From NCBI RefSeq assembly GCF_003334355.1, contig NZ_QOWP01000004.1: a stretch of DNA of 64,000 nucleotides; one strand, given 5' to 3'. Of the stretch, positions 3,271 through 29,097 are shown piece after piece. The translations under genes and the position numbers were made by a program. The notes under the pieces were generated by a model, which was not told the DNA's origin, did not search any database, and saw only the letters and a program-made list of their open reading frames with translations. Within the stretch, counting starts at the first letter, position 1. Each line of letters begins with the position of its first letter. Origin of the DNA: Escherichia coli. Its GTDB lineage: Bacteria > Pseudomonadota > Gammaproteobacteria > Enterobacterales > Enterobacteriaceae.

Positions 3271-4152
3271 TTACTTCAGGTATTCACCCGTACGCAGAGC
3301 TTCAATTCGTTTATCCAGCGGCGGGTGAGTCATGAACAACTCACTGAGCGATTTCGACTTACCGTTAATGCAGAAAGCCATCATGCTGGTTGCTTCTTGC
3401 GGTTCATAGCTGGTTTTCAGGCGCTGCAGCGCGGCAATCATTTTCTCGCGACCAACCAGTTTTGCCGAACCGGCATCAGCATGGAATTCACGATGACGCG
3501 AGAACCACATGGTGATAATGCTCGCCAGAATACCAAACACCAGTTCCAGAACCGTTGCAACCGCAAAGTAGATCAGCGGGTTGCCGTTGCTCTCTTCACC
3601 TTCATCACGATTTCCGCCCATAAAACCCGCGGCAAGCTGCGCCAGAATACGGGAAATAAAGATAACGAAGGTGTTCACCACGCCCTGAATCAGCGTCATG
3701 GTAACCATATCACCATTGGCGATGTGGCTGATTTCGTGAGCAATTACCGCCTCGGCTTCATCCGGGCTCATGTTCTGCAGCAAACCGGTGCTGACAGCAA
3801 CCAGAGAGGCATCACGGCGCGCACCGGTTGCAAAAGCGTTGATGTCCGGCGCATGGTAGATAGCCACTTGCGGCATAGCGATCCCTGCCTGACGAGCCTG
3901 GGTTGCTACAGTATTGACCAGCCAACGTTCCCTTTCGTTACGCGGTTGCTCGATCACTTCCCCGCCAACAGATCGTAATGCCATCCATTTGGACATCAGA
4001 AGCGAAACGAAGGAACCACCAAAACCGAACAGCAAGGCCATGATCATCAGCCCCTGAACGCTGCTCGACTGTATCCCTGTCAGGCTCAGTACCAGCCCGA
4101 AAACGACCATTACGGCCAGGTTCGTTAGCAGGAAGAGCGCGATTCGCATCAT
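3271..4152 (-). CDS. htpX: HtpX, heat-shock zinc metalloprotease (M48)
   Basis: 293-aa ORF, ATG start; HEISH zinc-binding motif present ([11 protein letters not shown]). Confidence 0.95.
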
Positions 4153-24368: not shown

Positions 24369-26180
24369 TTAAAAAGTGATACAGGTTGCGCCCTGTTCGG
24401 CACCGGACAGTTTTTCACGCAAGGCGCTGAATAATTCACGTCCTGTTCCCACGCGTGACGCGCTCAGGTCAGGAATGTGCGGTTCGCGAGCAGCCAGTTC
24501 CGCTTCGTCTACCAGCAGCGTCAGTTCGCCTGTCTGTCCATTCACACGAATGATGTCCCCGTCGCGCACTTTTGCCAGCAGCCCGCCATCGTAGGCTTCT
24601 GGTGTTACGTGGATAGCTGACGGCACTTTACCTGAAGCGCCGGAGAGTCGTCCATCGGTAACTAACGCAATTTTGAAACACCGGTCCAATAATACACCAA
24701 GTGGCGGCATGAGTTTATGTAATTCTGGCATTCCGTTCGCTTTTGGCCCCTGATGACGGACAACAACGACACAATCGCGGTCCAGCAAACCCGCTTCAAA
24801 GGCCGGCATAACGTCATGCTGGCTTTCAAAAACAACCGCTGGCGCTTCAATCACCTGGTTCTCAACCGGCACGGCAGAGGTTTTCATAACCGCACGGCCC
24901 AGGTTACCGCTTAACACTTTTGTCCCACCATGATGAGAGAAAGGTTGTTCGAAGGAAGCGATCACATTGCTGTCGAGTGATTTTTCCGCCCCTTCCCGCC
25001 AGTCCAGTTCACCATTATTCAGCCATGGTTCAAGGGTATAACGAGACAGACCAAAACCTGCCACCGTATTGACATCTTCATGCAGCAGGCCTGCTTTGAG
25101 CAGTTCACGCACCAGAACCGGTACGCCACCTGCCGCCTGGAAGTGGTTAATATCGGCCGGACCGTTCGGGTAGAGACGTGCCATCAGCGGTACAACATCA
25201 GAAAGGTCAGAGAAGTCATCCCAGTTAATCTGAATACCGGCCGCGCGCGCCATCGCCACCAGGTGCATGGTGTGGTTAGTGGAACCACCGGTCGCCAGCA
25301 GTGCAACGATACCGTTCACCACCACTTTCTCATCGATCATCTTACCGATCGGCATCCATTCATTACCATTACCGGTCATGCGTGTAACCTGACGCGCAGC
25401 TGCGGCGGTCAAAGCATCGCGCAGCGGAGAATCCGGATGAACAAAAGAAGAGCCTGGCAACTGCATCCCCATAAACTCCACCACCATCTGGTTGGTGTTG
25501 GCAGTACCGTAGAAAGTACATGTTCCCGGCGCATGGTAAGACGCGGCTTCTGACTCCAGTAAGGCCATGCGGTCCACTTTACCTTCGGCATAAAGCTGGC
25601 GAATACGCACTTTTTCTTTATTTGGCAAACCGCTTGCCATCGGTCCAGACGGCACAAACACCGCAGGCAAATGACCAAACGACAGGGCTGCCATCGTCAG
25701 ACCCGGGACAATCTTGTCGCACACCCCGAGGAACAGAGCACCATCAAACATGTTATGGGACAGCCCGACCGCCGCAGACATCGCTATCACTTCGCGGCTT
25801 AGCAGCGACAATTCCATTCCATCCTGCCCCTGGGTGACACCATCACACATCGCCGGAACACCGCCCGCAACCTGACCAACCGCATTCGCTTCATGCAGGG
25901 CTTTACGAATGATTTCTGGATAGTGTTCATAAGGCTGGTGCGCGGAGAGCATGTCGTTATAGGAGGTGATGATGGCGATATTGTTACGCAACATGCTTTT
26001 CAAAGAGGCTTTGTCTTCTGGCTGGCAGGCAGCGAAACCGTGTGCCAGGTTACCGCATGCCAACTGCGAACGATGAACGGTCGACGTTTTCGCTTGTTCT
26101 ATCCGGGCGAGATAAGCAGAGCGAGTCTCGCGCGAACGTTCAATGATTCGATTTGTTACGCGTAACATTTGTGGATTCAT
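24369..26180 (-). CDS. edd: Edd, phosphogluconate dehydratase (Entner-Doudoroff)
   Basis: 603-aa ORF, ATG start; IlvD/Edd family. Confidence 0.95.
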
Positions 26181-26302
26181 AAAGGCTCCTGAAATTGAGT
26201 TGTCAGAGCAGGATGATTCACAACGCGTTTCATTCAGAGGATTTATGAGTGAAACGCCTGTAACCGGAGCTCATAGGGCAAAAACGTTTCAGTCAGTGTA
26301 AT

Positions 26303-26336
26303 AAAAAAAGCCTCGTGGGTGAATCCGCACGAGGCC
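26303..26336 (-). terminator. Rho-independent terminator downstream of zwf
   Basis: gcctcgtg-ggtgaatc-cgcacgaggc followed on the minus strand by a T-run. Confidence 0.65.
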
Positions 26337-26374
26337 TGAAAGTGTAAAAATTGTTCTACAATCTGCGCAAGATC

Positions 26375-26390
26375 ATGTTACCGGTAAAAT
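26375..26390. promoter_or_regulatory. Candidate GntR-type operator upstream of edd
   Basis: ATGTTACCGGTAAAAT near-palindrome resembling GntR operator half-sites (TGTTACC / GGTAACA). Confidence 0.4.
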
Positions 26391-26414
26391 AACCATAAAG
26401 GATAAGCGCAGATA

Positions 26415-27890
26415 TTACTCAAACTCATTCCAGGAACGACCATCACGGGTAATCATCGCCACCGAGGCAACGGGTCCCCAGGTTCCGGCCTGATACGGTT
26501 TCGGCGCATCATTGTCCATCGCCCACGCCTCAGTAATGGAGTCTACCCATTTCCAGGCTTCTTCCACTTCGTCGCGACGTACAAACAGTGCCTGAATACC
26601 ACGCATGGTTTCCAGCAGCAAACGTTCATAGGCATCCGCCAGATGCGTCTGATTAAAGGTTTCTGAATAGCTCAGATCCAGCTTGGTGATTTGCAGGTTA
26701 TGTTTGTGGTCAAGGCCAGGAACTTTATTCAGTACCTGGATATCCACGCCTTCATCAGGTTGCAGACGGATAGTCAGTTTATTCTGCGGCAGATCCTGCC
26801 ACGACTCTTTAAACAGATTCAGTTCAGGTGTTTTGAAATAGACCACGACTTCAGAACATTTGGTCGGCAGACGTTTACCAGTACGCAGGTAGAATGGCAC
26901 ACCGGCCCAGCGCCAGTTATCAATGTCGACGCGGATCGCCACGAAGGTTTCTGTATTGCTGCTCTTGTTCGCGCCCTCTTCTTCCAGATATCCCGGCACT
27001 TTTTTGCCCTGGGCGAAGCCCGCAGTATATTGCCCGCGTACGGTTTTTTCGCGTACGTTGGAGCGGTCGATGCGGCGCAGAGACTTCAGTACTTTCACTT
27101 TTTCATCGCGGATGCTGTCTGCGCTCAGGTCAGACGGCGGAGACATCGCAATCATGCAAAGAATTTGCAGCAGGTGGTTCTGGATCATGTCGCGCATCTG
27201 ACCGGCTTTATCAAAATAGCCCCAGCGCCCTTCGATCCCCACTTCTTCTGCCACGGTAATCTCAACATGATCAATGGTGCGATTGTCCCAGTTATTCACA
27301 AACAGGGAGTTAGCAAAACGCAGCGCCAACAGGTTCAGCACCGTTTCTTTACCAAGATAGTGGTCGATACGGTAAACCTGGCACTCCTCGAAGTATTCGC
27401 CAACCTGATCATTGATTTCCTGCGAGGTCGCCAGCGACGTCCCCAGCGGTTTCTCCATGACTACGCGTGCCGGTTTAGCATTCAGTTTTGCCTCGCCAAG
27501 CCCTTTGCAAATTGCGCCAAAAGTGCTGGGCGGCATGGCAAAGTAGTTAATGGTGATACGATTTTTTTGATCCAGCATCGCGCCGAGACGGTTGAATGCA
27601 GCAGTGTCATTGACATCGAGATTACAAAAATCCAGACGTGCACTCAGGGTGTCCCATAAACCTTCATCAATGGTTTCTTTCATGAAAGTTTCGAGCGCCT
27701 CGCGGACAACTTTGGTATACGCCGCTTTATCCCAGTCAGCACGCCCTACGCCGATAATCCGGGTGTCCGGGTTGAGCTGACCGGCTTTTTCCAGTTGATA
27801 CAGGGAAGGCAGCAATTTACGACGCGCAAGGTCGCCTTTCGCGCCGAAAATGACCAGGTCACAGGCCTGGGCTGTTTGCGTTACCGCCAT
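26415..27890 (-). CDS. zwf: Zwf, glucose-6-phosphate 1-dehydrogenase
   Basis: 491-aa ORF, ATG start; RIDHYLGKE signature. Confidence 0.95.
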
Positions 27891-28227
27891 GTCATTCTCC
27901 TTAAGTTAACTAACCCGGTACTTAAGCCAGGGTATACTTGTAATTTTCTTACGGTGCACTGTACTGCTTTTACGAGCTTGCGAAAACTGTAAACGCTTAT
28001 CCACCCGTGCGATTACGGGAAAAGCGCGCAAAGTGCGGCAAAACTGATAAAAAAATCATCGTTTTCCATTCGGTAAAAATCTGACACTGATCATGTTATG
28101 AAAAAAAATAACAACTTTTTTATCTGCTTTTGTCATTAACACGGCACACAGGCGTAATATCTGACAAAACTGCATTTCGATTTCTTTCAGTGCGGAAATC
28201 GTCATTACCCGTGAGTCTCTTTACATC

Positions 28228-29097
28228 ATGAATATGCTGGAAAAAATCCAGTCTCAGCTGGAACATTTGAGCAAATCAGAGCGCAAAGTTGCCGAGGTCA
28301 TTCTGGCTTCGCCCGATAACGCGATCCATTCGAGTATTGCTGCTATGGCACTGGAAGCCAATGTTAGCGAACCGACGGTGAATCGTTTCTGTCGCAGCAT
28401 GGACACGCGCGGTTTTCCTGATTTTAAACTTCATCTGGCACAGAGTCTGGCGAATGGCACTCCCTATGTTAATCGCAACGTCAATGAAGATGACAGCGTT
28501 GAATCATACACAGGGAAAATATTTGAGTCCGCAATGGCAACGCTCGATCATGTCCGTCATTCACTGGATAAATCTGCCATCAACCGCGCCGTCGACTTGC
28601 TCACTCAGGCAAAAAAAATCGCCTTTTTCGGATTAGGCTCTTCAGCCGCCGTTGCCCACGATGCGATGAATAAGTTCTTTCGTTTTAATGTTCCGGTGGT
28701 GTACTCCGATGATATTGTGCTGCAACGCATGAGTTGTATGAATTGTAGCGACGGAGACGTGGTGGTGCTGATTTCTCACACTGGAAGAACAAAAAATCTG
28801 GTCGAGCTGGCGCAGCTGGCTCGCGAAAACGACGCAATGGTGATTGCCCTCACCTCTGCGGGTACCCCGCTCGCCCGGGAAGCAACGCTGGCAATTACCC
28901 TCGACGTACCGGAAGATACTGACATTTATATGCCCATGGTTTCTCGACTTGCACAGCTGACCGTGATAGATGTGCTGGCGACAGGATTTACTTTGCGACG
29001 CGGTGCAAAATTCAGAGATAACTTGAAGCGGGTCAAGGAAGCGCTGAAGGAATCGCGTTTTGATAAGCAGTTACTTAATTTAAGTGACGATCGCTAA
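28228..29097 (+). CDS. hexR: HexR (YebK), RpiR-family regulator (HTH + SIS domain)
   Basis: 289-aa ORF, ATG start; divergent from zwf. Confidence 0.9.

Follow-up and report, generated by a model that had tools for sequence, protein, structure and literature searches.

Among operons governed by repressors of the LacI family, four are close in layout to the region described here. At gal, the operators OE and OI lie approximately 113 bp apart and flank the promoter without overlapping it, the downstream one within the first structural gene; their repressor GalR is a LacI-family dimer that lacks the LacI tail and is released by the pathway sugar, and both looping and its dependence on HU have been demonstrated. 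In purB, an intragenic PurR operator functions as a transcriptional roadblock, a single site within the coding region and well downstream of the start, where the same sequence serves protein and operator. The gntT gene has two separated GntR operators (141 bp apart, at positions 3384 and 3525 of locus L003), one of which sits beside the start codon, over 100 bp past the start. In the gntT study by Peekhaus and Conway from 1998, looping between the two operators was reportedly proposed, the upstream one being said to overlap the −10 element. The gntKU operon carries overlapping GntR operators (PMC4052901), spaced 13–15 bp apart near the promoter. The GntR in question is the LacI-family gluconate repressor and not a protein of the GntR family.

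How does the edd–eda operon compare with these systems? Its repression by GntR is documented (PMC9648032, PMC13386637), and GntR control of its promoter P1, in conjunction with repression by Cra, is long-known textbook physiology of E. coli. The DNA analyzed here is a stretch of 64,000 nucleotides of the E. coli chromosome (64 kb; the window). P1, which is inducible by gluconate, has its control region between zwf and edd, where it is interlocked with the zwf end. With gntT it shares the repressor, the 16-bp motif, the presence of two separated operators and a downstream operator close to the start codon, but at edd both predicted operators are clear of the core promoter, one is intragenic, and P1 sits within the terminator of the upstream gene. 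The tail-less repressor, its release by a sugar of the pathway and the two flanking sites, the downstream one in the first gene, recall gal, whereas the edd sites are 222 bp apart and looping between them is something that we infer. Like purB, edd appears to carry an operator for a LacI-family protein in its coding region, but another site, just as well conserved, lies upstream of it. The motif and repressor are also those of gntKU, and the overlapping-pair layout of that operon is found again ahead of edd in Serratia sp. Ag1, Rahnella and Proteus; in contrast, edd of the Enterobacteriaceae has a split pair, 209–232 bp apart.

The zwf–edd junction and its conservation

The genes at the junction are placed as follows in window coordinates.

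26415–27890, minus strand: zwf, glucose-6-phosphate dehydrogenase coding sequence, stop codon TAA at 26417–26415 (ORF list and RefSeq annotation)
26181–26414: zwf–edd spacer, 234 bp between the zwf stop and the edd ATG
26186–26190, minus strand: Shine–Dalgarno sequence AGGAG of edd (from the sequence; its AGG is invariant in the alignment A1 described below)
24369–26180, minus strand: edd, phosphogluconate dehydratase coding sequence, first gene of edd–eda, ATG at 26180–26178 (ORF list and RefSeq annotation)
23691–24332, minus strand: eda (ORF list)

The 381 bases around the spacer are present in 5426 of 5426 complete E. coli genomes, with an identity of at least 99% in 3,474, and RefSeq annotation of identical DNA assigns them to the zwf 3′ end and the beginning of edd. 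Positions in the window equal those of NC_000913.3 minus 1,908,424, a conversion that was checked on 401 bp and found to cross just three SNPs. With the zwf TAA ending at 26415 and the edd ATG beginning at 26180, the spacer length of 234 bp given in an earlier note on this DNA is correct. An Rfam scan of positions 25000–28500 at E ≤ 1 returned no RNA family, and the idea of a small protein encoded in the spacer was rejected, the reading frames there being mechanical ORFs only.

A survey of species-representative genomes with Edd yielded 80 loci, in 60 of which, all from Enterobacteriaceae, zwf lies 218–380 bp upstream of edd. Alignment of the 46 distinct zwf–edd spacers (A1) reveals sharply bounded conserved blocks amid otherwise scrambled sequence. 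One block, TTTACCGGTAACATGATCT, comprises a predicted distal GntR operator and an adjoining GATCT; another, CTGAAGCGATTTTGCC, lies at the transcription start site of P1. Further blocks correspond to a hairpin, to the Shine–Dalgarno sequence with the ATG, and to TGTTACG(C/G)GTAAC inside edd. Taken together, the anatomy of the junction, that is, the terminator, the position of the promoter and the identity of the operators, is something of which we are highly confident.

The zwf terminator and the P1 promoter

The central part of the spacer contains the following elements, all on the minus strand.

26303–26336, minus strand: intrinsic terminator of zwf; stem 26335–26328 with 26317–26310, inner pairs 26326/26318 and 26325/26319, U7 at 26309–26303
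26318–26323, minus strand: predicted −35 element TTCACC of P1, which falls in the zwf terminator hairpin (loop plus inner stem)
26295–26300, minus strand: predicted −10 element TACACT of P1, 17 bp past the −35 and directly after the U-tract and AT
26289, minus strand: transcription start (A) of edd–eda P1, 109 nt before the ATG, with a 5′ UTR of 109 nt (26289–26181)
26280–26293, minus strand: Cra (FruR)-like box ACTGAAACGTTTTT, from −4 to +10 of P1, covering the start site

The hairpin and its U7 are the intrinsic terminator of zwf. The stem arms, GCCUCGUG and CACGAGGC, followed by U7 on the minus strand, lie 79–114 nt past the zwf stop on the sense strand and fold at −19.2 kcal/mol (z = −5.0; 0 of 200 shuffles equally stable). 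Across 46 Enterobacteriaceae sequences, both sides have changed in six of the ten pairs of the stem; 91.5% of its cells are paired, compared to 44–66% in a control with the partners slid, and the hairpin retains a free energy between −15 and −24 kcal/mol in 45 of 46 species. In the SMRT-Cappable-seq data the zwf transcript runs from 1936374 to 1934727 (PMC6131387, supplementary data), its end corresponding to window position 26303, the last U. In terms of reads, 41 begin at the start site of zwf, 14 terminate at 26303 and 4 extend beyond it (PMC6131387); these counts are low, and the start and end coordinates used here come from this single dataset. The earlier note had assigned the hairpin to zwf, and its stability, the U7, the covarying stem and the mapped 3′ end confirm that assignment. 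The 3′ end carries the tag ‘novelTTS’ in the published table (PMC6131387), and the zwf terminator was thus absent from the RegulonDB terminator list used for that table. A generic promoter and terminator scan detected neither element in this region, an artefact of its thresholds; the hairpin was missed because the scan allows loops of up to 8 nt and the nominal loop here measures 10 nt.

In its GC-rich, covarying stem, its U7 and a 3′ end on the U-tract, the zwf terminator resembles canonical Rho-independent terminators. What sets it apart is the conservation of its loop sequence and of the bases that follow the U-tract, explained by their second role as predicted −35 and −10 elements in the promoter of the next gene. 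The start of the edd–eda operon (b1851|b1850) is reported at 1934713 on the reverse strand (SMRT-Cappable-seq, PMC6131387), that is, at window position 26289, 6 nt downstream of TACACT and 14 nt beyond the zwf 3′ end. Shimada et al. found a binding peak of RpoD holoenzyme in the zwf–edd spacer by SELEX and predicted TTCACC-17-TACACT as its best-matching promoter (PMC3946193). The 17 bp between the hexamers are made up of the 3′ arm of the stem, the U-tract and AT. Both hexamers are weak (4/6 and 4/6, or 8/12 in total) and below the threshold of the generic promoter scan, and the arrangement TTCACC-17-TACACT is conserved across species, with TACACT present in 58 of 61 sequences and altered by a single base in the other three. 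In A1, the hairpin loop GGATTCACC, the T-run and TACACT are almost invariant while the stem covaries. P1 is nested in the zwf terminator, with its predicted −35 in the loop, the 3′ arm and U-tract as its spacer and its predicted −10 immediately after. Since P1 starts downstream of the terminator, its transcripts lack the terminator sequence, and no leader spans it.

A natural experiment that separates the terminator from the promoter function is provided by ‘Escherichia sp. ESNIH1’ (L030, positions 2260–2390). A new canonical terminator has appeared there directly behind zwf, whereas pairing in the original hairpin is lost (−3.6 kcal/mol); TTCACC, T7, TACACT and both predicted operators are retained. 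This locus supports the dual reading of the hairpin.

Several further observations concern the surroundings of P1. Just upstream of the hairpin, the A/T-rich stretch AATTTTT (26346–26352, −63 to −57 of P1) is nearly invariant across genera and may be a UP-like element. The idea of a structured 5′ UTR was dropped, as a 130-nt fold is unremarkable (z = −1.66), and an antisense promoter using a plus-strand TAAAAT was rejected by inspection for want of a −35. The TSS table of Kim et al. 2012 lists no 5′ ends in the spacer. It does contain 5′ ends of 3–6 reads inside the zwf coding sequence, at window positions 26531, 26586 and 26775, which are assigned there to edd and are probably processing products or noise.

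The start site itself is covered by a predicted Cra site. The asymmetric Cra consensus is RSTGAAWCSNTHHW, which the box at 26280–26293 matches exactly; the window holds three such matches against 0.56 expected. The start-site block also resembles the Cra motif gcTGAAtCGaTTCAgc derived from ChIP-exo, and a review places a Cra site at edd–eda that overlaps or follows the RNA polymerase site. A search with the perfect Cra palindrome, allowing up to three mismatches, gave no match, and only the asymmetric consensus does. More copies of TGAAACG, direct and inverted, occur in the 5′ UTR at 26225–26237 and 26246–26257, where they form a 12-nt inverted repeat; these may be extra Cra half-sites.

Predicted GntR operators on either side of P1

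Three elements define the outer parts of the control region.

26375–26390: predicted distal GntR operator, plus strand ATGTTACCGGTAAAAT, minus strand ATTTTACCGGTAACAT; one mismatch to ATGTTA-N4-TAACAT
26370–26374, minus strand: GATCT with a Dam GATC site, abutting the distal operator; invariant in A1 (46 species)
26153–26168, minus strand: predicted proximal GntR operator ATGTTACGCGTAACAA, in edd codons 5–10; one mismatch to the consensus

The GntR consensus ATGTTA-N4-TAACAT is quoted as ATGTTACCCGTAACAT in PMC10450161, and the pattern recovers known operators in K-12, namely the overlapping gntK pair and the two gntT sites. The distal site begins 25 nt past the zwf stop, upstream of the terminator, and occupies −101 to −86 relative to the P1 start (center −93.5). 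Is this palindrome simply a functionless chance match? Matches with two or fewer mismatches are indeed at chance level in the window (3 versus 2.04 expected), but with at most one mismatch there are 2 versus 0.11 expected, a number reached in 0 of 100 shuffles. These two matches sit 222 bp apart on either side of the zwf–edd spacer and flank a known GntR-regulated promoter. Moreover, the distal site is invariant in A1 across genera whose neighboring bases are scrambled; of the 60 syntenic loci, 59 carry it with no more than two mismatches, and every one has its core TTAC(C/T)GGTAACAT. Coincidence is a negligible explanation on these grounds. The earlier note had called the near-palindrome GntR-like, which agrees with its single mismatch, its enrichment and its conservation; its distance of about 195 bp from edd was also computed correctly, and the site belongs to the control of edd.

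The same note had placed a distal promoter at the palindrome, controlled by GntR and giving rise to a long leader through the zwf terminator. In its favor, the palindrome contains TAACAT, which bears a weak resemblance to a −10 element, the terminator leaks slightly, and one of the gntT operators overlaps a −10 element. Against this reading, the sole reported edd–eda start, at 26289, lies past the terminator, and no start near 26375–26390 appears in the tables of SMRT-Cappable-seq or of Kim et al. 2012. No conserved −35 is seen upstream of the palindrome, that flank being the most variable part of A1, and a transcript from there would meet an intact hairpin of −19 kcal/mol with U7 within approximately 40–70 nt. 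With the reported start proximal to edd only, the promoter claim is refuted on the note's own terms, and we regard a promoter at this position as exceedingly improbable.

The position of the distal site in the zwf 3′ UTR raises the question of whether it serves zwf, with GntR modulating termination or 3′-end formation. In 59 of the 60 syntenic loci, as in the window, the site does lie between the zwf stop and the terminator. Its distance from the zwf stop varies widely, however, with spacers of 218–380 bp and insertions upstream of the site, whereas its distance to the −10 of P1 is 89–91 bp in 61 of 61 sequences; furthermore, in the ESNIH1 locus the site lies downstream of a functional zwf terminator. 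The fixed distance to P1 and the retention of the site in that locus tie its function to P1 and not to zwf. We know of no effect of GntR on zwf, and a role in zwf expression seems very unlikely to us.

One half-site of the distal operator reads ATTTTA (26385–26390) in place of ATGTTA, an imperfection conserved in about 50 species. This asymmetry seems to be selected, perhaps for a tuned affinity or an overlapping function. The adjoining GATCT (26370–26374) could not be matched to any of the GntR, CRP or promoter elements tried. By inspection, it was rejected as part of a second, overlapping GntR site, as registers shifted by 13–15 bp match poorly, and a CRP site beside the operator was likewise rejected (3/5 + 3/5, with its center off-register). 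Elsewhere in the window, the hexR/yebK coding sequence contains a match to the Cra consensus (28377–28390) and a 2-mismatch GntR match (28466–28481), both consistent with chance at those thresholds. A literal search of papers for the operator sequences turned up only a primer.

The proximal site was not part of the earlier note. Located at +122 to +137 (center +129.5), it is present in 60 of 60 syntenic loci. We compared the first 60 edd codons in 61 sequences, among which 27 conserved codons are at least 4-fold degenerate. Codons 6, 8 and 9 (TTA, GTA and ACA) show an entropy of 0–0.21 bits, compared to 0.97–1.95 bits in 23 other conserved degenerate codons; codon 6 is always TTA, codon 8 always GTA, and codon 9 is ACA in 59 of 61 sequences. 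Codon 7 is only ever CGC or CGG, a C/G variation that falls on an unspecified spacer position of the operator. In outgroups without zwf–edd adjacency (Serratia, Yersinia, Rahnella, Proteus and Xenorhabdus), the intragenic site is missing and R-V-T is encoded in varied codons. Judging from these codon patterns, the putative intragenic operator is selected as DNA, its synonymous positions frozen. Codon 5 is ATG (Met) in this strain and TTG (Leu) in K-12, both of which occur among other genera, and through the SNP at 26168 the operator differs from the consensus by one base fewer than in K-12. Overall, the conservation in about 60 species indicates strong purifying selection on both predicted operators throughout the Enterobacteriaceae.

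Outside the loci with adjacent zwf, GntR sites take other positions. Several such outgroups have them 78–197 bp upstream of the edd ATG instead, some paired 14–15 bp apart. In Serratia sp. Ag1, Proteus and Rahnella (L071, L081, L083 and L084), overlapping GntR-type pairs at this spacing lie 78–158 bp upstream of edd. Many other Serratia and Yersinia loci have no GntR site between −500 and +120 of edd.

The proximal arm is less uniform than the distal one. In the same 61 sequences, the −10 and the proximal operator are separated by 120–124 bp in 12 cases, 128–133 bp in 48 and 142 bp in one; together with the fixed distal arm, these three lengths give operator spacings of 209–214, 218–223 or 232 bp. 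The helical phasing of the spacings reaches R of about 0.5 at periods of 10.5–11.5 bp, with a value of 0.009 under a crude null that ignores phylogeny. It rests on few independent indel events, and spacings of 214 and 218–219 bp are poorly phased; a helical-phase constraint of approximately 10.5–11 bp on operator spacing is suggestive only. In Buttiauxella (L043, L046 and L047, upstream of position 2290), the zwf–edd spacer measures 379–380 bp with an unchanged operator-to-edd distance, owing to some 145 bp inserted after the zwf stop and ahead of the distal operator.

Repression of P1 and the relevance of the split operators

The two predicted operators flank P1, with centers at −93.5 and +129.5, and neither overlaps the core promoter. 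We propose the following model for the repression of edd–eda. Without gluconate, GntR dimers would occupy both operators and repress P1 cooperatively, most likely by means of a loop of approximately 222 bp that encloses the promoter, and the intragenic site might pose an additional roadblock to elongation. Gluconate or 6-phosphogluconate would release GntR, and Cra would add an independent repression at the start site. We assign a probability of roughly 0.6 to the core of this model, namely repression of P1 by GntR bound to both flanking operators, through a loop and/or a roadblock, until gluconate frees the repressor. Looping specifically is a tentative proposal, at somewhat below even odds. 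GntR, with 331 residues and a sugar-binding fold that extends to residue 330, lacks the C-terminal tetramerization tail of LacI, and a loop would consequently need another dimer–dimer contact or a helper protein, as with GalR.

Might the two operators instead act independently, with no loop? The site at +129.5 would then block elongating RNA polymerase, like the PurR site of purB, and the distal site would only raise the local concentration of GntR or, as a roadblock, help the terminator to shield edd from zwf read-through. The missing tail is in keeping with such a scheme, as are a core promoter that neither site overlaps, the location of the distal site in the path of zwf transcription (with read-through in 4 of the 18 reads that reach the end) and phasing evidence that is suggestive only. 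On the other hand, independent action does not readily account for a distal site held at a fixed distance from the −10 of P1, nor for its retention in the ESNIH1 locus, where the new upstream terminator takes it out of the zwf transcript; changes in 5′ UTR length also cluster near steps of about 10–11 bp. We consider independent action the less likely reading, and cooperative repression of P1 through the two flanking operators remains the preferred one.

What is the relevance of this arrangement? With modest probability, the conserved looping geometry is a detail of a well-known regulation that has so far gone undescribed. The discovery value of the analysis is small, and its main value lies in a corrected map. 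In the engineering of Entner–Doudoroff flux, swaps of the ‘edd promoter’ face a P1 that overlaps the zwf terminator, with one operator upstream of that terminator. The other would lie within the first ten edd codons, and half of the repression apparatus would be lost on recoding of the N-terminus or on fusion of a reporter at the ATG. In teaching, the locus may also illustrate two things: dual coding, with an operator in a reading frame that freezes synonymous sites, and the use of a terminator loop as a −35 element.

Finally, we speculate that the zwf–edd junction is a conserved three-in-one module of the Enterobacteriaceae, consisting of a terminator with the −35 of P1 in its loop and of two GntR operators separated by 20 ± 1 helical turns, one situated in the zwf 3′ UTR and the other in edd codons 5–9, that would close a loop around terminator and promoter, silencing P1 and insulating edd from zwf read-through. 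The full version of this idea is doubtful. If true, it would be a case of DNA looping by a LacI-family dimer that lacks the tail, with a geometry and a codon-level cost that have not been described before.
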